A stretch of 64,000 bases of DNA, taken from contig CAVPBK010000006.1 in the NCBI GenBank assembly GCA_963701855.1, forward strand, positions 640,001 through 704,000, written 5' to 3'. Position 1 is the first letter of the stretch. Every line of letters starts with the position of its first letter. Positions 7,532 through 53,612 of this stretch are shown here, in pieces. The translations under genes were made by a program, and so were the position numbers. Origin of the DNA: Nitrospirota bacterium. Lineage in GTDB: Bacteria > Nitrospirota > Nitrospiria > Nitrospirales > Nitrospiraceae. Below the pieces are notes generated by a model. That model was not told where the DNA came from and did no database searches. It saw only the letters and a program-made list of their open reading frames with translations.

Positions 7532-8233
7532 ATGAAAACCACACGATTGGCAAAGCGTTTCGTGATCGCGGGCCTACTAGCGCTGCTGATCCCGATTGTT
7601 CTCTTTGCGCCTCAGGCGTATGCAGAATCCTACGTGGCCGGGCAGTTCGGCGTGACCCTCCCGCAGAGCCTGAGCAACGGTACGATCACGCAAGATGGAT
7701 TTGGGGGACTCGATATTTCAGACCAGCCCTTAAAAAGCTCCGCGATGGTGGGTGCCAAGATCGGACACTACTTCACGAAAGCCCGTTGGCTGGGCATCGA
7801 GACCGGTGTGTCCTACACAACCCCTCATATCGAACAAGGGTCGCTTACTTTTTCGGGCCCTGGTGGGTCGTTAACATCCCCAAATTTAACGGGCATTCAC
7901 CAACGCATAATTACATGGGACACGGATGTAATTTTTCGCTATCCAGGCTACCGGCTCCAGCCCTATATCGGAATCGGCCCCTCTTTTTACTTTGCAGAGC
8001 TAAAGGGCCCCGACGCACCTCCAGGACAATCGGCCGCCTCAATCGGCTTCAACGCCGAAGGAGGTATACAATACTACCTCACGCGTCAATGGACCCTGTT
8101 CGGGGAAGGCAAATACAACTATGCCCGCATGAACTATTCCTCAAATCATAGCGATCCGAACGCTGACCCATTCGGATTCCGAGCGACCTACAGTGCCTTC
8201 ATCCTCTCCATCGGCATTGGCTATCATTTCTAA
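7532..8233 (+). CDS. Outer-membrane beta-barrel protein (OmpA/OmpW-like)
   Basis: Signal peptide ending AYA-ESYVAGQ, amphipathic beta strands, PYIGIG, terminal GYHF. Confidence 0.85.
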   Translation: MKTTRLAKRFVIAGLLALLIPIVLFAPQAYAESYVAGQFGVTLPQSLSNGTITQDGFGGLDISDQPLKSSAMVGAKIGHYFTKARWLGIETGVSYTTPHIEQGSLTFSGPGGSLTSPNLTGIHQRIITWDTDVIFRYPGYRLQPYIGIGPSFYFAELKGPDAPPGQSAASIGFNAEGGIQYYLTRQWTLFGEGKYNYARMNYSSNHSDPNADPFGFRATYSAFILSIGIGYHF

Positions 8234-45002: not shown

Positions 45003-45425
45003 CCCGCGTAATGACAGAGCCGAAGCCGCTTTCCGTGGGTATCCGCCCAATACTGATTGGACGAACTCCGCCAGGAGCTGTACGCTCGTCTATCTGTAGC
45101 GATCTCCAAACAAAGAACCACTGCTCTCGATCCCACTAGCAAGCGGGATTGAAGAGGTCAATCGGTAACTGGTGGTGTAATCCTCCCCCGCCTGCACTAG
45201 TCCCAGAGATCGTCCTGTTCGGCTCTTCATTCAAGCCCGCATCTCTGCACTGCTTGATTGTTGTGGACCGGAAGGACCCTTCGGTTGAAACTCCCTTGCG
45301 GTAGCAGATTGATGCTGGTCAGGCTCACGATATGGGATCTGGAACAGGAATGAGGACCTATCGGAGACTCAGGACATCCATCATGTCATGGTGATGTGAA
45401 CATTAGGAAATAAGTCCGCTATCAG

Positions 45426-46126
45426 TTAGAAGTGGTAGCCGACGCCAGCGGCAAAGATGTTCACATTATAATTATACGACAGGTCAAACCCATTAACCCC
45501 CAGGAAATTATTGTGGTCGATATTCGCGTAATTGTATTTCCACTCTCCGAACAGTGAGAGATTCGGATTGACACGATACCTCAGCCCAAGTTGCGTGTTC
45601 AGTCCCACATCCGTACTTGAACTGGAATCAGTACCATCCGAAATACGGGAAAAGAACACCCCGAGCCCCACTCCAGCGTAGGGCTCGAACGCCCCTGCTT
45701 GATACCTGACTAATACGACCAATGGAGTCCAGGTCAAAACCCGATTAGTCAACCCTTGTAGCGTCCCTGTTGTGCCTACTGTATTAGCAATAAGGGCGGG
45801 GGAACGAGGATCTAGCGTAACCTCTTGCTGCTTAATATGAGGCGTTGAATTGAATACTTCGGTTTCGACGCCTAGATTGAAGTTCTGCCATTTCAGCGAA
45901 TCAAAATAGTATCCTGCCTTGGCTCCATACATCAGGGAGTTCTGTAACACGAGGTCACTCAATCCTAAGGTCCCTCTCCCTGCACTTAATTCCAGGTTGC
46001 TAGCGTCTTGGGGAATGTTCGCACCCACTTGACCCGCGACATACATCTCCGCCTGTAGGGGGAGTCCAGACAGAACATACCCATAGCAACAGAACACACT
46101 CCGAGCGTATAGCGTAAGTGTCTCAT
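45426..46126 (-). CDS. Outer-membrane beta-barrel protein, paralog of 7532-8233; frameshift in the signal region
   Basis: AEMYVAGQ, GAKAGYYF, TPHI.Q, PYAGVG, GEWKYNYA, GYHF. ATG 46126 has an AGGAGG RBS but is out of frame by one base at the G5 tract 46058-46062. Confidence 0.8.
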
Positions 46127-46529
46127 CTCTCTCCTCCTAATGATCTCTCTCGAAAGAAAGCTGAAGCATCTTAAGAGAGAGAGTTAAGCAATTTATGTGC
46201 GTGGTTGGAACCAAGGCAGTTTCATTGAGAATGTCAATGGTGCGGCGTACCGATCGATGAAACAAACGAGAAGAATATGGTTCAGTGGAATCTAAAAGGG
46301 TACGTAGCAGGATCTATACTGATACAGACTGACCGTGGGGAAGGCTGTCAGATTGCGATGAAGAAAAATTGTGTTTGGGCGAGAGTTCAAATGATACTTG
46401 GAGCTGCTTCTCGGCACTTTGTGGGGGTCATGAGCTGGTCACTGCGGGCTATTGCGCGAAGTGTTGGAGGTGTCTACTGCGAGTGTGGCGCGGGGGTTAC
46501 GGTGAAGGTGGGACTTCGGCGGACTCGAC

Positions 46530-48305
46530 TCAGCAGCCTTTGAACTGCTGTGCCTGACACTGTTGCGCGAGTCGTTGGGCTTTTGCAACCTGTGCGGGAG
46601 TTAGTTGCTGGACGATAGCATCCCGACGTTGTGCGTACGTTATGTTCTTCCTGCCCTGTCTTAGAGATTGCTCAACCGCGAGGTTGTACCACATGTAAGC
46701 ACGCACCTTGTCCTGCTGCACACCGCGTCCATCGCGATACATATCGCCGAGTGAATCTTGCCCTCCCGCGTCTCCCTGCTCGGCAGATTTTCGTATCCAT
46801 TCCATCCCTTTTTTTTCGTCCTTCTGAACGCCCTTCCCATCAACGTAAAGATAGCCGAGGTTGTTCTGCGCATCCGAGGAGTTCTGGGCTGCGGCTTTTT
46901 CGTACCACTGCCGCGCCATCGCGTAATCCTGAGGCACGCCTTCTCCATTGTCATACAATACGCCGAGGTTGTACTGAGCGGCAGCATCCCCATGAACAGC
47001 GGCTTTCTCATACTTCTGCCATGCTATTGCGTAGTCCTGCGGCACGCCCTCTCCCAAGGCATACATCGTCCATAGAAGGACCTTCGCCTTCATGACCCCC
47101 TGGGCGGCGGCTTTCTCATACCATTGCCGTGCCATCGCGTAATCCTGCGGTACGCCCTGTCCCTTGACATACAGCGATCCGAGAAGGACCTGCGCGGTTG
47201 CATGTCCCTGGCTAGCGGCATCCTCCCACCACTGCCCTGCTGTCACGTAGTCCTGAGGAACACCTTGTCCCTTGCTATACAGCACCCCAAGGTTGAACTG
47301 CGCCTCCGCATAGCCTTGGGCTGCCGCTTGCTTGTACCATTGCCTGGCTATCATGTAGTCCTGTGGTACGCCCTTCCCGGAATAATACATCGTCCCCAGA
47401 TCGTACTGCGCCTTCGAGATGCCCTGGGCTGCCGCTTTCTCCCACCACTGTCGCGCCGTCTCGTAATCCTGCGGGACACCTTTCCCAAGGGCATAGAGCG
47501 ACCCAAGGTTGTACTGCGCCATTGCATCCTCCTGGGCTGCCGCTTTCTCAAACCATCCTCGCGCTTTCGCATAGTCTTGCGTGACACCCTGTCCAAAGGC
47601 ATACAGGGTCCCGAGGTGGTCCTGTGCCTCCGCGTCTCCCAGGGCTGCTCCCTTCTCCAACCATTGTCGCGCCGTCGGATAGTCTTGTTTGACACCCAAT
47701 CCGAAGTAATACAACCCCCCGAGGCGGAACAGTGCGCCCTCGTCCCCCTGGGCAGCAGCTTTTTCAAACCACTGCCGCGCTGTCGTATAGTCTTGTGGCA
47801 CACCCTGTCCGTCGCGATACAGCACCCCGAGATTGGACTGTGCCAACGCATTCCCCTGGGCTGCCGCTTTCTGGATCCACTTCGCCGCTTGGGCATAGTC
47901 CTGCGGCACACCCTTCCCCTTGGCATACAAAAACCCAAGGTGGTCCTGCGCCTCTGCATCCTCCTGGGCTGCCGCTTTTTCCCACCACTGCCGCGCTTTG
48001 ACATAGTCCTGCGGCACACCCTCTCCTTCGGCGAACAACAACCCAAGGGTAAACTGCGCCTTCGCGTAGCCCTGGGTTGCAGTTTTTTCAAACCATCCTC
48101 GCGCTTTCGCATAGTCTTGCGGCACACCCCGTCCAAGGTAATACAGTGCCCCGAGGGCGTGCTGCGCCAGCGCGTAGCCCTGGGCTGCCTGTGTTTTCAT
48201 CCTTTGAAGGTCTTCTGGTGAAACGTCGCTCGGTGGGGAACCTGACGCATGCCCAGAGGGGAGAACGAGTGCACTGAGAAGGACTATGACGAATAGGGCG
48301 CACAT
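46530..48305 (-). CDS. Secreted Sel1-like repeat protein (14 repeats)
   Basis: Signal peptide; 36-aa repeats AQxxLGxLYxxGxGVPQDYxxARxWxEKAAAQG; C-cap TPAQ...QQCQAQQFKGC. Confidence 0.93.
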   Translation of the reverse strand: MCALFVIVLLSALVLPSGHASGSPPSDVSPEDLQRMKTQAAQGYALAQHALGALYYLGRGVPQDYAKARGWFEKTATQGYAKAQFTLGLLFAEGEGVPQDYVKARQWWEKAAAQEDAEAQDHLGFLYAKGKGVPQDYAQAAKWIQKAAAQGNALAQSNLGVLYRDGQGVPQDYTTARQWFEKAAAQGDEGALFRLGGLYYFGLGVKQDYPTARQWLEKGAALGDAEAQDHLGTLYAFGQGVTQDYAKARGWFEKAAAQEDAMAQYNLGSLYALGKGVPQDYETARQWWEKAAAQGISKAQYDLGTMYYSGKGVPQDYMIARQWYKQAAAQGYAEAQFNLGVLYSKGQGVPQDYVTAGQWWEDAASQGHATAQVLLGSLYVKGQGVPQDYAMARQWYEKAAAQGVMKAKVLLWTMYALGEGVPQDYAIAWQKYEKAAVHGDAAAQYNLGVLYDNGEGVPQDYAMARQWYEKAAAQNSSDAQNNLGYLYVDGKGVQKDEKKGMEWIRKSAEQGDAGGQDSLGDMYRDGRGVQQDKVRAYMWYNLAVEQSLRQGRKNITYAQRRDAIVQQLTPAQVAKAQRLAQQCQAQQFKGC

Positions 48306-48441
48306 AAAACACTATCGCCCTAGTATCTTAGACCGTCAAGGATTAGCGGATTGTTCGCTTTGCTGAATAGATCATCAACAAGGAGGCTTGTGAGGTGTGG
48401 CTGCAACGGAGGAAGAGCGAAAGCAGCAGCATTAAAGTACC

Positions 48442-49347
48442 TCAGCAGCCCTTGAACTGCCTTGCTTGACACTGTTGCGAGAGTCGCTGGGCTTCTGCAA
48501 TCTGTGCGGGTGTCATGCGGCGTGCGACCACGTCTCGATTGTTTGGTGCAGGATTCTGCTCATCGTCCATCGAGTGTGCAGCTGCGAGGTTGTACCACAT
48601 GTATGCACGCACATAGTCCTGCGGCACGCCATGTCCGTTGTCATACATCCACCCGAGGTTGTTTTGCGCTTTCACGTAGCCCTGCGCGGCGGCTTTCTCC
48701 CACCACTGCCGCGCTGTCGCGTAATCCTGTGGCACACCCTGCCCGAAGTTATACAGCACCCCGAGGCTGTTCTGCGCCCTCGTGTGCCCCTGTGCAGCGG
48801 CTTTCTCGAACCACTGCCGCGCTGCCGCGTAGTCTTGCGACGTGCCCCGCCCGAAGTCATACAGCACCCCGAGACCGAATTGCGCATCTGCGTCCCCCTG
48901 GGCAGCCGCTTTTTCATACCATTCATGCGCTTTCGCATAGTCCTGTGGCACGCCTCGCCCCCTGTCATACTGCACTCCGAGTGAGACCTGCGCCGTCGCA
49001 TACCCCTGAGCAGCCGCTTTCTCGTACCACTGCCGTGCCGTCGTGTAATCTTTCGGCACGCCTTGTCCCTTGGCATAAAGCACACCAAGATTATTCTGTG
49101 CTTCCGCGTAACCTTGTACTGCGGCTTTCTCCCACCACTGCCGTGCTGCCGCATAGTCCTGTGGCACACCCTGTCCATTGTAATACAGCAACCCGAGGGT
49201 GGTCTGCGCTTCCGCGACACCCTGGACTGCCTGTGTTTGCAGCGTTTGTATGTCTTCTAATGAAGTGTCGATCGGTGGGGAAACAGTTGCACATCCAGAG
49301 GAGAGAATGAGTGCGATGAGGAGAATTATGACGGAAAGAGAACGCAT
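48442..49347 (-). CDS. Sel1-like repeat lipoprotein (6 repeats)
   Basis: MRSLSVIILLIALILSSGC lipobox-like; SLR repeats; C-cap QQCQARQFKGC. Confidence 0.92.
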   Translation of the reverse strand: MRSLSVIILLIALILSSGCATVSPPIDTSLEDIQTLQTQAVQGVAEAQTTLGLLYYNGQGVPQDYAAARQWWEKAAVQGYAEAQNNLGVLYAKGQGVPKDYTTARQWYEKAAAQGYATAQVSLGVQYDRGRGVPQDYAKAHEWYEKAAAQGDADAQFGLGVLYDFGRGTSQDYAAARQWFEKAAAQGHTRAQNSLGVLYNFGQGVPQDYATARQWWEKAAAQGYVKAQNNLGWMYDNGHGVPQDYVRAYMWYNLAAAHSMDDEQNPAPNNRDVVARRMTPAQIAEAQRLSQQCQARQFKGC

Positions 49348-49499
49348 GGGAGCGCAGTATGGGCGCGGACCTCTGAGAGCGTCAATGGACACAATGGGGG
49401 GCATGGTCTGGTCGCTATGGATGATTGCTAAGAGTGTCGGCGTGTCTACTGCGAGTGTGGCGCAGGGGTTGCGGTAAAGAGAGAGCGGTAACCCCCAAC

Positions 49500-49994
49500 T
49501 CAGCAGCCCTTGAACTTCCTTGACCGACACTGTTGTGCAAGTTGATTGGCTTCTGCAATCTGCGAGGGAGTCATGCGGCGTGCGACATCATCTCGATTTT
49601 CTACCGCTTGCTTCTGCTCGTCACCCGTCATGTCTGCGGCTGCAAGGTTCACCCACATATACGCCCGCACATCGTCCTGTGGTACGCCCAGTCCCGCGTA
49701 ATACATTTCCGCGAGGTTGTTCTGCGCGAGCGCGTGACCCTGAGCAGCGGCTTTCTCGTACCACTGACGCGCTTGCGAATAATCCTGCGGCACGCCTTGT
49801 CCATTGGCATACAGCATCCCGAGGTTGGTCTGCGCCTCCGCATTCCCTTGGGCTGCAAGCGATTGAAATGTTTTCAACGCAGTCGCGTAGTCACCGCGTT
49901 TATTTGCAGCCGTAGCATCTTCCAGTGGACCTGCCCACACCGTACCAGCAGTCAGCAAGAGTGCAGTACCTATAGAAGGTAAGAGTCGTGTCAT
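49500..49994 (-). CDS. Secreted Sel1-like repeat protein (2 full repeats)
   Basis: Signal peptide VWA-GPLED; SLR repeats; C-cap QQCRSRKFKGC. Confidence 0.92.
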   Translation of the reverse strand: MTRLLPSIGTALLLTAGTVWAGPLEDATAANKRGDYATALKTFQSLAAQGNAEAQTNLGMLYANGQGVPQDYSQARQWYEKAAAQGHALAQNNLAEMYYAGLGVPQDDVRAYMWVNLAAADMTGDEQKQAVENRDDVARRMTPSQIAEANQLAQQCRSRKFKGC

Positions 49995-50199
49995 TGTAAT
50001 GCCTTTGTAAGAGATCGTAGGAACTGAGGCAGTGTGCTCCGTTTGAAGGGGGCGGTCAAATGAAACTTGGAGCGGCTTCGCGGCACTTTGTGGAGGGGCA
50101 AGAGTTGGTCGCTACGGATGATTGCAAAGAGTGTTGGCGTGTTTATTGCGCGGGGTGGTGCGGGTACTGGGGTAAAGATGAGGCTTCGATGGAGCCTAC

Positions 50200-51261
50200 T
50201 CAGCATCCCGTGAGCCCCTGCGCCTGGCACTGTTGCGCGAGTCGCTGGGCTTCTGCAATCTGTGCGGGTGTCATGCGGCGTGTGAGTGCCCCATCTCGAT
50301 TGGTTGCTATGGACTTCTGCTTGTTACCCGTCGAGTGGGCGACTGCAAGTGTGTACCATATATATGCCCTCACATCGTCCTTCGGCACGCCGTCTCCAGT
50401 GGCATACATGAGCCCGAGGCTGAACTGTGCATCCGCGTCCCGCTTCGCTGCCGCTTTCTCGTACCACTTCGTCGCTTCCTCATAGTTCTGTGGCACGCCG
50501 AGCGCAAAGTGATACAGCTGCCCGAGCTTGAACTGCGCCCCAGCATAGCCCTGGGCTGCGGCTTTCTCGTACCACTGTCGCGCCTTCGCATAGTCCTGCG
50601 GCACGCTATATCCCTGGGCATATCGCAATGCGAGGCTGAACTGCGCATCCGCGTTCCCCTGAGCTGCCGCTTTCTCGTACCACTTCGTCGCTTCCGTGTA
50701 ATTCCGTGGGACGCCGTCTCCCTTTTCATACAGCGAACCGAGGTAGAACTGCGCATTCGTGTTCCCTTGCGCCGCCGCTTTCTCGTACCATCCCCGCGCA
50801 TCCGCGCTGCCCTGGGCTGCCGCTTTCTCATACCACTGTCGCGCCTTCGGGAAATCTTGCGGGACGCCCTGTCCATGGGCATACATTTCACCAAGGATGT
50901 ACGACGCATTCGCTCTTCCCTGCGCGGCGGCTTTTTCGTACCACTCTCGTGCCATTATGTAATCCTGAGGCACCCCATGTCCATTGGCATAGAGCAGACC
51001 GAGGTTAAACTGTGCTGCCGCGTGATTCTGTGCGGCGGCTTGTTCGTACCACTGCCGCGCGACCACATAATCCTGGGGCACCCCATCCCCGAGGTCATAC
51101 AGTAGCCCGAGGTTGTTCTGCGCCAATGCGTTGCCTTGGGCTGCCCGTGTGCGCAGCATTTGCAGTTCATCTGCTGAAATGTTGATCGGTGGGGAAGCTG
51201 ACGCATATCCAGAGGAGAAAAGAAATGCAGCCAAAATCGTTATGGCGGAGAGGACGCGCAT
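50200..51261 (-). CDS. Secreted Sel1-like repeat protein (7 repeats plus 1 internally deleted)
   Basis: MRVLSAITILAAFLFSSGYASA signal; SLR repeats; C-cap QQCQAQGLTGC. Confidence 0.92.
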   Translation of the reverse strand: MRVLSAITILAAFLFSSGYASASPPINISADELQMLRTRAAQGNALAQNNLGLLYDLGDGVPQDYVVARQWYEQAAAQNHAAAQFNLGLLYANGHGVPQDYIMAREWYEKAAAQGRANASYILGEMYAHGQGVPQDFPKARQWYEKAAAQGSADARGWYEKAAAQGNTNAQFYLGSLYEKGDGVPRNYTEATKWYEKAAAQGNADAQFSLALRYAQGYSVPQDYAKARQWYEKAAAQGYAGAQFKLGQLYHFALGVPQNYEEATKWYEKAAAKRDADAQFSLGLMYATGDGVPKDDVRAYIWYTLAVAHSTGNKQKSIATNRDGALTRRMTPAQIAEAQRLAQQCQAQGLTGC

Positions 51262-51415
51262 GGGAACGCAGTATGGGGGCGGAACCCAGAGACCGTCAAT
51301 GACACAATCAGGGGGCATGGGATGGTCGTTATGGGCGCTTGCGAAGAGTGTCGGCGTGTCTACTGGGAGTGCGGCGCAGGCGGTGCGGTAAAAATGAGAT
51401 TTCGGCGGACCTTTC

Positions 51416-52432
51416 TCAGCAACCTTTGAACTGCCGTGCCTCACACTGTTGCACGAGTCGCTGGGCTTCTGCTATCTCCCCTGGAGTCAGCCTGCGGGCG
51501 ACAATATCTAGATTTTCTGCTGCTAATTTCTGGTCCTCACCCATCGAGTGAGCTACTGAAAGACTCCACCACATGTATGCCCGCACATAGTTCCGCTGCA
51601 CGCCCCGCCCTAAGCCGTACAGCGTCCCGAGGTTGTTCTGCGCCTTCGCATCCCCCTGCGCGGCGGCTTTCTCAAACCACTGCCTCGCCTCGACGTAATT
51701 CTGTGGCACCCCGTGTCCATCGAGATACAGATTCCCGAGCATTCGCTGCCCCTCTGCGCCCCCCTGGGCTGCCGCTTTCTCATACCATCCTCGTGCTTTC
51801 GCATAGTCCTGCGGCACGCCATTCCCGCCAGATGAATAGATCTCCCCGAGGTTGACCTGCGCTGACGCGATGCCCTGGGCTGCCGACTTCTCGTACCACT
51901 TCGTCGCTTGGGCAAAGTCCTGTGGGACGCCGTGTCCCTGGACATATAGACCCCCGAGGTTGTGCTGTGCCATCGGATGTCCCTGGGCTGCCGCTTTTTC
52001 TAACCATAGCTTCGATTGTCCGTAATCCCGCTGAACGCCATATCCCTTGTAGTGCAGGACTGCGAGGAAGAATTGCGCCTCTGCGTCCCCCTGAGCTGCC
52101 GCTTTCTCATACCATCCTCGTGCTTTCGTATAGTCCTTCGGCACGCCTTCTCCAAAGACATAGAGCGTAGCAAGTTTGAACTGTGCCTTTGGATTGCCTC
52201 GGGCTGCTGCTTTCCCAAACCACACCCGTGCCTTGGCATAGTCCTGCGGGACACCACCTCCTTCGTAATACAGCGACCCGAGCTTGACCTGTGCCTCCGC
52301 ATTCCCTCGGACTGCCTGTGTTTGTAGTGCTCGTAAGCCTTTTGCTGAAATGTCGCTCGGCGGGGAGCCTAACGCATACCCAGAGGGGAGAACGAATGCA
52401 GCGAGGAGAATCATGACGAATACGGCACGCAT
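51416..52432 (-). CDS. Secreted Sel1-like repeat protein (7 repeats)
   Basis: Signal peptide; SLR repeats; C-cap QQCEARQFKGC. Confidence 0.92.
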   Translation of the reverse strand: MRAVFVMILLAAFVLPSGYALGSPPSDISAKGLRALQTQAVRGNAEAQVKLGSLYYEGGGVPQDYAKARVWFGKAAARGNPKAQFKLATLYVFGEGVPKDYTKARGWYEKAAAQGDAEAQFFLAVLHYKGYGVQRDYGQSKLWLEKAAAQGHPMAQHNLGGLYVQGHGVPQDFAQATKWYEKSAAQGIASAQVNLGEIYSSGGNGVPQDYAKARGWYEKAAAQGGAEGQRMLGNLYLDGHGVPQNYVEARQWFEKAAAQGDAKAQNNLGTLYGLGRGVQRNYVRAYMWWSLSVAHSMGEDQKLAAENLDIVARRLTPGEIAEAQRLVQQCEARQFKGC

Positions 52433-52805
52433 AAACCACTTTCGCCCTAGTGCCTTGGACCGTCAAGGAATAACGGATTGTTCGCATTGCTGAGTAGATA
52501 CTCAAGCAGAAAACTATGACGTTGCTGTGGGTTCGAGTCGTGTCCTTCCCCACCAGAATAGTGCCCTGTTCGCAGCAGCAAGCTGTCTAAATCATCTACT
52601 GAAGTCTGTCAGAGATAGACCTCGCGTTGGCGATTGGAGCGGCGCGTAGAGGCTCTGCGAAGGGGCTTGAGGATACTGTGCGGTGTGGCAAATGCTAAAG
52701 TATTAGTCAGGACGGGAACGGTGAGAATAATGAATGAGAGTGACACACTCGTTACACACTTACTTTTTATAAATACAAGTCATTGAAATGTAACTTACAA
52801 TATGC

Positions 52806-53612
52806 CTATGCTTTTAGTCCTAACACATCCATCATGTCATACAGGCCTGGTGGCTGCCGAACCACCCATCGAGCGGCACGCAGGGCGCCTCCCGCGAAGG
52901 TATCTCGGCTACTCGCTCGATGCGTCACTTCGATACGTTCACCCATTCCACCGAAGAGGATCGTGTGGTCGCCGACAATGTCTCCGGCACGGATCGTTTG
53001 AATCCCGATCTCACCCTTCTTTCGTTCCCCGATAAGACCTTTTCTGGCATAGACGCCGACCTGATCCAGATCGCGACTCACGGCTTTCGCCAAGACCTCC
53101 GCAATCTTGAGCGCCGTCCCGCTCGGGGCATCTTTTTTTAGGCGATGATGGGCTTCAATCACTTCAATGTCGTAGTCGTCCCCCAGCGTTTTCGCCATCT
53201 CACTAATGACCTTATAGATCAGATTGATACCCACGCTCATGTTGGGGGACAACACGCAGGGAACTTGGCAGGCCAGCGATTTCAGCTCTTCGAGCTGAGG
53301 AGTGGAAAACCCCGTCGTGCCGATTACCATGGCTCGCCGATATTGCGCCGCCGTGCGTAAATGATCCAGGGTCGCTTCAGGAGCGGAGAAGTCGACAACC
53401 ACTTCGCCTCTGTCGAGGAGCGCCGCGAAATCATCGGTGATCGAAATGCCTGCGCGGCCACAGCCCGCTGTTTCCCCGGCATCGTCACCCACGGCGTGAT
53501 GACCCTTCCCTTCAATGGCACCGGTCAACATCAGGGTGGTCGAGTCTTTGATAAGCGCAACCAGACGACAGCCCATGCGACCGGCTGCCCCTGCGACAAT
53601 GACGTTGATCAT
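52806..53612 (-). CDS. dapB: 4-hydroxy-tetrahydrodipicolinate reductase
   Basis: GAAGRMG, GTTG, EAHHRLKKDAPSGTAL, GLYDM.DVL. Confidence 0.96.
   Translation of the reverse strand: MINVIVAGAAGRMGCRLVALIKDSTTLMLTGAIEGKGHHAVGDDAGETAGCGRAGISITDDFAALLDRGEVVVDFSAPEATLDHLRTAAQYRRAMVIGTTGFSTPQLEELKSLACQVPCVLSPNMSVGINLIYKVISEMAKTLGDDYDIEVIEAHHRLKKDAPSGTALKIAEVLAKAVSRDLDQVGVYARKGLIGERKKGEIGIQTIRAGDIVGDHTILFGGMGERIEVTHRASSRDTFAGGALRAARWVVRQPPGLYDMMDVLGLKA

Follow-up and report, generated by a model that had tools for sequence, protein, structure and literature searches.

We describe a 7.4-kb genomic islet (45374-52840) in a 64,000-nucleotide stretch of a Nitrospirota bacterium genome (Nitrospiraceae; assembly GCA_963701855.1, contig CAVPBK010000006.1, positions 640,001 to 704,000), referred to as the window, in whose coordinates features are given. 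Between dapB and a YHS gene, its minus strand carries five genes for Sel1-repeat proteins, g1 to g5; the islet comprises these and an outer-membrane barrel gene, is integrase-less, and lies between two copies of a 16-bp sequence from the 3' end of dapB, a gene of lysine synthesis. We consider it probable that the whole is explained as a dapB islet that lacks its integrase, whose exported Sel1 proteins likely bind fixed partners and whose parts were likely traded by ordinary recombination. The shuffling of repeats is real but slow, and no dedicated diversifying machine was found (no recombinase, no attC site and no diversity-generating retroelement, DGR). A preliminary description had confined the array to 46380..52500, an interval too small for a unit that includes the barrel gene and both att-like cores.

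The Islet Occupies the 3' End of dapB

The attL-like core (52825..52840, minus strand) lies within the dapB 3' end and has an exact copy in the attR-like core (45374..45389, minus strand), which is followed by the displaced original dapB tail; this 16-bp core has exactly two copies genome-wide (45374 and 52825). The islet provides a replacement tail (52806..52824, minus strand), with which the dapB protein ends in LGLKA instead of LSLR. The ending is LSLR or LNLR in 9 relatives with an empty site and LGLK in the four other occupied genomes read. At the left end, two direct repeats that resemble arm-type sites, a putative role (52740..52757, minus strand), are present in all five occupied dapB sites aligned, while at the right end such repeats occur only in the whole element L114 (see below). 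The adjoining non-coding left-end sequence (52520..52739, minus strand) is common to islets at other sites, and a query spanning 52433-52830 matches 21 of 85 genus genomes, mostly through that part. No integrase or transfer gene was found in the islet among the window's reading frames or by Pfam scan, and the L114 integrase has no homologue in this genome, which does contain 22 other integrase matches. Foreign base composition was considered and rejected, the islet G+C of 0.557 being like that of the genome.

The block is absent from all 20 of the genus dapB loci read (out of 24 same-genus loci); among the four outside those 20, G008 shows the occupied-site signature at a contig end. This signature occurs in 6 of the 85 genus genomes, the present one (G000) included, with two further one-mismatch matches in another genus. 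Locus L114 (1816-7920, genome G075; L195 is the same element) holds a whole 6-kb element between the same dapB cores. Its tyrosine integrase adjoins the right core and is divergent (phrog_1, E 6e-14; below cut-off in Pfam), with no relative but itself in the genome collection; the element also carries a serine resolvase, an RHH gene, two cargo genes and a gene for a 208-aa Rep-like protein that falls near the REP_ORF2-G2P cluster (score 0.95, the family being found on 39% of members). Elsewhere the contents differ: in L115 the barrel accompanies a g2 orthologue, in reversed order relative to the window; L113 carries two Adhesin_E genes, DUF2628 and a helicase relic; and L116 retains little beyond the left end. 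A metagenome scan, in which many contigs were short, yielded 18 dapB loci, 16 of them Nitrospira-like, with clear Sel1 genes in 4, Adhesin_E in 4, type I-E CRISPR-Cas in 2 and a large helicase in 1; one metagenome dapB locus has PDC-S32 beside a Sel1 gene. Type I-E CRISPR-Cas stands directly behind the dapB attL in L191:927-9100 and in L184, one of them scanned and the other assigned by identical reading frames.

The cassette accretion first proposed for this site is not borne out as a tandem process: there are no att relics between the Sel1 genes, so the five were not piled up one after another at the core.

Five Sel1 Genes with Shared Leaders, Caps and Spacers

The initial count of five genes with 14, 6, 2, 7 (plus a partial) and 7 repeats, 36 in total, is confirmed; a regular expression finds 35, and the last is a g2 repeat that it misses. 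All five lie on the minus strand: g1 (51416..52432) encodes 7 repeats, one of them 37 aa long; g2 (50200..51261) encodes 7 repeats and a 15-aa partial repeat that g2 orthologues in four other genomes retain; g3 (49500..49994) encodes 2 repeats behind a leader type common to Adhesin_E genes; g4 (48442..49347) encodes 6; and g5 (46530..48305) encodes 14, the last of which is also found in other genus genes. The likely starts of g2 (51261) and g4 (49347) lie inside open frames that extend upstream of them. In each gene, Pfam Sel1 (PF08238, a 36-aa repeat; E 3e-22 to 7e-135) is the sole family above cut-off; a PADLOC PtuA match to g5 has no matched stretch and was set aside. By inspection, all five N-termini are hydrophobic and signal-peptide-like (g1 having a predicted signal peptide), and g4, with a lipobox-like cysteine, is a predicted lipoprotein, so that the five products are predicted to be exported. 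Every protein, g1 through g5, ends in a TP cap and a two-cysteine (C-x7-C) tail, as the preliminary description had noted; 73 of the 120 listed homologues have this tail. The whole genome has 13 Sel1 reading frames. We found 13 orthologues of g3 and, among 78 genus Sel1 genes and the 120 listed homologues, none of g1.

A 157-nt spacer, here called EL, follows four of the five Sel1 stops, and its end looks like a promoter with a ribosome site. On the minus strand, full copies lie at 50042..50199, ending in a promoter-like site before g3, and at 46374..46529, with partial copies at 51310..51415 and 49393..49498, all of them junction spacers. Promoter-like sites lie just 5' of g2 (51299-51270) and at g4 (49385-49356); sigma-70-like sites stand a few bases 5' of the starts of g2, g4 and g5 (region total 10, against 3.9 in shuffles), and the 73 nt upstream of g5 are 85% identical to the 73 nt upstream of g1. 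We counted 63 distinct EL copies, in loci fetched partly by EL likeness; 37 of them follow a cap, and the remainder stand before Adhesin_E, DUF2628, barrel, lipoprotein or Mrr genes. Three identities for EL were rejected: a structured RNA (3 pairs, no covariation, on the sense strand examined), a relic of coding sequence (three-base periodicity not clear; 0.73, 0.72, 0.77), and part of an integron cassette array (attC core pair in 0 of 53 EL sequences, no conserved structure, no Rfam match). The array sequence was found in soil and rhizosphere metagenomes, and the listed holders include no RNA dataset.

A Constant Frame, a Variable Face and the Selection on It

Across the 36 repeats the framework is near-invariant (L8 in 36/36; G15, G17, V18 and W28 each in 35/36), while positions 1, 3, 6, 7, 10, 13, 14, 16, 23 and 24 vary, with 2.6-3.3 bits each. 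This profile bears out the near-constant framework first described but not the unusual variability claimed for it. Equality with ordinary Sel1 proteins had been named beforehand as the outcome that would count against that claim, and the profiles are indeed equal: the entropy profile correlates with those of three groups of the 120 listed homologues at Spearman 0.84-0.90, and the variable sites average 2.94 bits vs 2.77-2.88. A constant frame with a variable face is ordinary for Sel1 proteins. One figure points the other way: within each gene, identity at the variable sites is 0.12-0.24, below the homologue medians of 0.23-0.28, although those sites had been selected on the array itself.

Between paralogous repeats, the ten sites have dN 1.03 and dS 1.12, a pooled dN/dS of 0.9. 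At six helix-1 sites pN is 0.61 vs 0.46-0.54 at fourfold framework sites, giving a corrected ratio of 1.7 (1.2-2.6) or 1.3 (1.0-1.75), with sites picked post hoc and distances near saturation. Between orthologues, the variable sites are 80% identical in g2 (5 genomes; dN/dS 0.42) and 83% identical in g3 (14 genomes; dN/dS 0.29); variable-site dN/dS is 0.31 in a three-repeat family (9 genomes) and 0.17 in a DnaJ-Sel1 control (9 genomes), and three sets of 2-3 genes gave 0.43-0.84 over few codons. The selection test proposed with the first description divides, the excess at helix-1 sites between paralogous repeats speaking for diversification and the low orthologue ratios of g2 and g3 against it. 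The pattern is one of divergence between repeats, followed by fixation in orthologues.

On a helical wheel, 6 of the 7 variable helix-1 sites fall on one 120-degree arc, in agreement with the earlier expectation that variable residues would share one face. According to the accessible text of PMC10868440, helix 1 forms the concave face in LceB, and the portions available of PMC1261162 place the most variable sites of tetratricopeptide-repeat (TPR) proteins generally on the concave binding face. A model of g4, the one good model of five (single sequence; pLDDT 81.5), is a helix-pair solenoid, and its top fold matches are LpnE, EsiB, LceB and Oxalobacter Sel1 proteins, the first three at 36-42% identity and E <1e-11.

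Exchange of Repeats Is Real but Slow

The nearest neighbour of a repeat lies in the same gene in 11 of 36 cases, vs 8.5 expected by chance, and no repeat pair in the array is more than 81% identical. In a comparison of modules across the 78 genus Sel1 genes (310 repeats), the last g5 repeat recurs in four genes with other repeats, the last g3 repeat recurs in the aat gene, a two-repeat block links two Sel1 families, and one g2 orthologue has a different cap; no match to g1, g4 or the greater part of g5 turned up among those genes and the 120 listed homologues. Identical residues share identical codons at 96/130 positions in leaders, 58/74 in caps, 70/113 in first repeats, and a fraction of ~0.56 in inner repeats: in this array, the repeats are older than the leaders and caps that enclose them.

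Pieces of the array are found in 8 metagenome runs from 7 studies, whose populations differ little from the window in g1, g4 and g5; the g2 alleles are more distant. Joints in reads were dropped if they had <30 letters on a side or other letters between the sides, which removed all 7 joints of the first read scan (one with a side of 31 outside the islet) and 11 of 14 of the second. The three joints kept, each on one contig, are a g2/g5 chimera, in which a g2-type start is joined in register to a g5 end where the two have 15 letters in common; a deletion of exactly five repeats in g5 (47547-48088), with its joint in an identical tract of 34 letters; and an empty site (run X9), a contig that may come from a relative. 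Shuffling among genes, as first proposed, is therefore upheld by the lack of clustering by gene, the cross-gene modules and the chimera in reads, whereas diversification within populations is not, since they show few letter differences. Similarly, the array is not invariant, in that dapB content differs between genomes, yet near-identical populations differ by few letters.

Two further sources of variation were examined and rejected. For a DGR, the best repeat pair is 81% identical, there is no near-identical template, and mismatch rates are alike at A (0.43) and T (0.46); the window contains no reverse transcriptase, and the 4 reverse-transcriptase matches of the genome are on other contigs. 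For recent gene conversion, the longest identical tracts are 44 nt (g2/g4 cap) and 33-34 nt.

Proposed Origin and Function

We propose that an L114-like tyrosine-integrase element inserted at dapB and later lost its mobility genes and right arm by deletion. Crossovers would have taken place in the leaders and caps that the genes share, in the EL spacer and in the constant framework of the repeats, so that repeats could be added, removed or exchanged between genes in register; a new repeat face would diverge quickly and then be kept, and the predicted exported products would bind fixed partners via the concave helix face. These partners may be foreign proteins met at the envelope (of phage, rival or predator), the part of the proposal of which we are least sure and to which we give somewhat less than an even chance; its sole basis is that defence genes fill the dapB site in other strains.

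Several observations weigh against this explanation. Only one whole element was found (L114/L195) and it has no Sel1 gene, so that the Sel1 genes may have entered the islet later rather than together with the integrase. No recognisable attR core is present at the occupied sites L113, L116, L186, L188 and L189. Defence neighbours are weak evidence, because mobile sites collect any accessory gene. The signal of younger ends is weaker when 15 genus genes are taken together, at 0.72 for the cap, 0.62 for the first repeat and 0.60 for the pre-repeat part. The chimera stands on a single contig with a depth of 4, and the five-repeat deletion may be an assembly artefact, because its 34-letter tract exceeds the assembler's word.

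Alternative Explanations

The products might instead be scaffolds or regulators of the cell's own envelope proteins (ExoR-, AlgK- or MotX-like), tandemly duplicated and with little selective meaning. Purifying selection between orthologues would fit this view, as would the Sel1 genes that travel with and fuse to Adhesin_E domains and travel with the barrel; a DnaJ-Sel1 gene of several genus genomes, with a similar leader, offers a possible source. However, the named Sel1-like-repeat (SLR) equivalogs (MerG, MotX, AlgK, ExoR) all scored far below cut-off, and genes that occur patchily and are often broken look more like accessory genes than like core regulators. We judge scaffolding unlikely.

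A wider proposal, decidedly unlikely in our view, would make the array part of a library of envelope binders that spans the genus and is fed by recombination. Mobile islets at several sites, dapB and aat among them, would have promoter-leader and cap-spacer modules in common that can stand in for one another. Sel1 repeat blocks and Adhesin_E domains would be swapped in register between these modules, and the resulting new receptors would intercept proteins of phages, rivals or predators, as a layer of extracytoplasmic defence at positions where other strains have CRISPR-Cas or restriction genes.

An actively diversifying binder repertoire, similar to antibodies or variable lymphocyte receptors, would call for population-level reshuffling and selection for new faces against fast-changing enemies. 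The helix-1 ratio of 1.3-1.7 over fourfold framework sites, the genes g1, g4 and most of g5 without counterpart in the genus or the homologues, the two in-register joints in 8 runs, and the within-gene variable-site identity below that of homologues would all suit it. But that ratio comes from sites chosen as variable, at distances near saturation, and the pooled ten-site dN/dS is 0.9; orthologues are under purifying selection, no repeat pair passes 81%, populations differ little, and a recombinase, attC or DGR is lacking. We consider such a repertoire improbable.

In Tli5-type immunity, a phospholipase effector is bound and neutralized, and g1-g5 could by analogy form an orphan immunity array of periplasmic Sel1 proteins that neutralize rivals' toxins, like Pseudomonas PA5086-PA5088 (Tli5). 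They are tandem, exported Sel1 paralogues, one a predicted lipoprotein, and PA5087, PA5088 and PA5086 appear in the g4 fold search (ranks 31, 45 and 38). In Acinetobacter, as reported in the accessible part of PMC6838775, Sel1 genes adjoin toxins of type VI secretion systems (T6SS), which also counts in favor, while the part of PMC3482391 at hand contains no Sel1 immunity family. The Pseudomonas matches are weak (19-21% identity, E 2e-5 to 1e-4) compared with LpnE, EsiB and LceB; none of the dapB islets read has a recognisable toxin gene next to it; and the genome has no match to the T6SS marker VipB, though orphan immunity needs no T6SS. The missing marker, the missing toxin neighbour and the weak Tli5 likeness make immunity less likely, and we regard it as quite improbable.

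Action on protist predators or hosts, in the manner of Legionella LpnE or Haemophilus Msf, is the most doubtful of the explanations, since the structural matches to LpnE, EsiB and LceB, although the best found, reflect a generic repeat, export beyond the periplasm is unsupported, and we know of no host for this Nitrospira lineage. The holders, soil and rhizosphere metagenomes, count in its favor. So does the lowered macrophage survival upon msf deletion that is described in the accessible text of PMC4792463.

Relation to Known Systems

The array was first put forward as an undescribed system, a claim that does not survive comparison with Haemophilus influenzae slrV/msf, which has the same architecture in the portion of PMC4792463 available. 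There, too, tandem Sel1 genes with a two-cysteine C-terminus occupy a non-core locus with remnants and unrelated genes, and repeats do not cluster by gene. The genes of that locus have signal peptides, as g1-g5 are predicted to have, and vary in gene and repeat number, as is seen here between species and perhaps, within the species, on single contigs; the likeness is one of architecture. Unlike that locus, ours has att-like cores in dapB, a site shared with defence systems, a recurring EL spacer and up to 14 repeats, and belongs to a soil bacterium. Loss of the integration genes with retention of both att cores, at the 3' end of a conserved gene, recalls the cis-mobilizable elements (CIMEs) covered in the accessible text of PMC5704250, but the right arm repeats are gone here, so even mobilization may be lost. 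The slr/hcp genes of Helicobacter pylori are likewise a lineage-specific expansion of secreted Sel1 proteins with divergence at surface sites; the available part of PMC1941758 reports positive selection between strain alleles, whereas here orthologues are conserved and a signal appears only between paralogous repeats. EsiB of Escherichia coli (4BWR), LpnE (6DEH) and LceB (8SXQ) of Legionella, and the Oxalobacter Sel1 proteins (6OK3), the best matches in sequence as well as in fold, have a terminal repeat and capping helix as in our proteins, and the alignments inspected show no C-x7-C tail. Function is not transferable from Sel1 repeat likeness. The hypervariable concave face of TPR proteins, as given in the accessible text of PMC1261162, has the same pattern and explains it without a special mechanism.

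The hotspot at dapB is new and shuffling there is slow, but the islet is built from known parts. We found no description of the dapB or aat hotspots, of such Sel1 genes in Nitrospira, or of soil Sel1 arrays in the literature searched, which covered few subscription papers and no supplements. The dapB and aat 3' ends are marked as Nitrospira integration hotspots, the kind of place that yields new defence genes. At these two, CRISPR-Cas and restriction-type genes alternate with exported Sel1 and Adhesin_E proteins, which makes the exported proteins testable candidates for envelope defence, and the array offers a natural experiment in how repeat proteins gain, and then keep, a new binding face. 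Should the proteins be only accessory scaffolds, this would be one more slrV-like locus.

Related Islets and Neighbouring Genes

The 3' end of aat is a second hotspot, often with a duplicated aat tail, that holds Sel1 pairs, Mrr or other genes (L002:5702-6750; L119, L123, L127, L128, L130, L132, L143, L146, L148, L151). The islets there are related to those at dapB, and one holds another Sel1 gene of this genome. A further islet of G000 lies beside a thioesterase gene (L001:5887-8125, C6 near 1.23 Mb) and carries PilZ, DUF2628, an orphan Sel1 cap with EL, and a pair of Adhesin_E genes, of which one is broken; G090 has the same DUF2628-Adhesin_E block at dapB. Adhesin_E is fused to Sel1 repeats in 5 of the 120 listed homologues (P0008, P0035, P0078, P0080, P0109) and at L187:7773-9026, and this genome has about ten Adhesin_E matches. 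A DnaJ-domain protein with four Sel1 repeats (L005:4203-5531) is represented by orthologues in 8 or more further genomes of the genus. Its linker is similar to the leaders of the mobile Sel1 genes, for which it may be the source.

The islet's outer-membrane beta-barrel gene (45426..46126, minus strand; PF13505), which has its start out of frame in this assembly, shares 73% identity with the barrel of the dapB islet in G093. Its sequence seems unstable: a base present near 46066 in 6 of the 8 metagenome runs is missing from the window, and one that the window has at 45470 is missing from 4 of the 8. Another outer-membrane barrel gene of the window (7562-8230) is 36% identical to the G093 islet barrel. 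A Csm6-like HEPN gene at L001:4446-5702, with no cas genes seen beside it, is also found in L125, L126 and L133. A YcxB-like gene lies at L001:10168-10770, preceded by sequence that may resemble an attC site.

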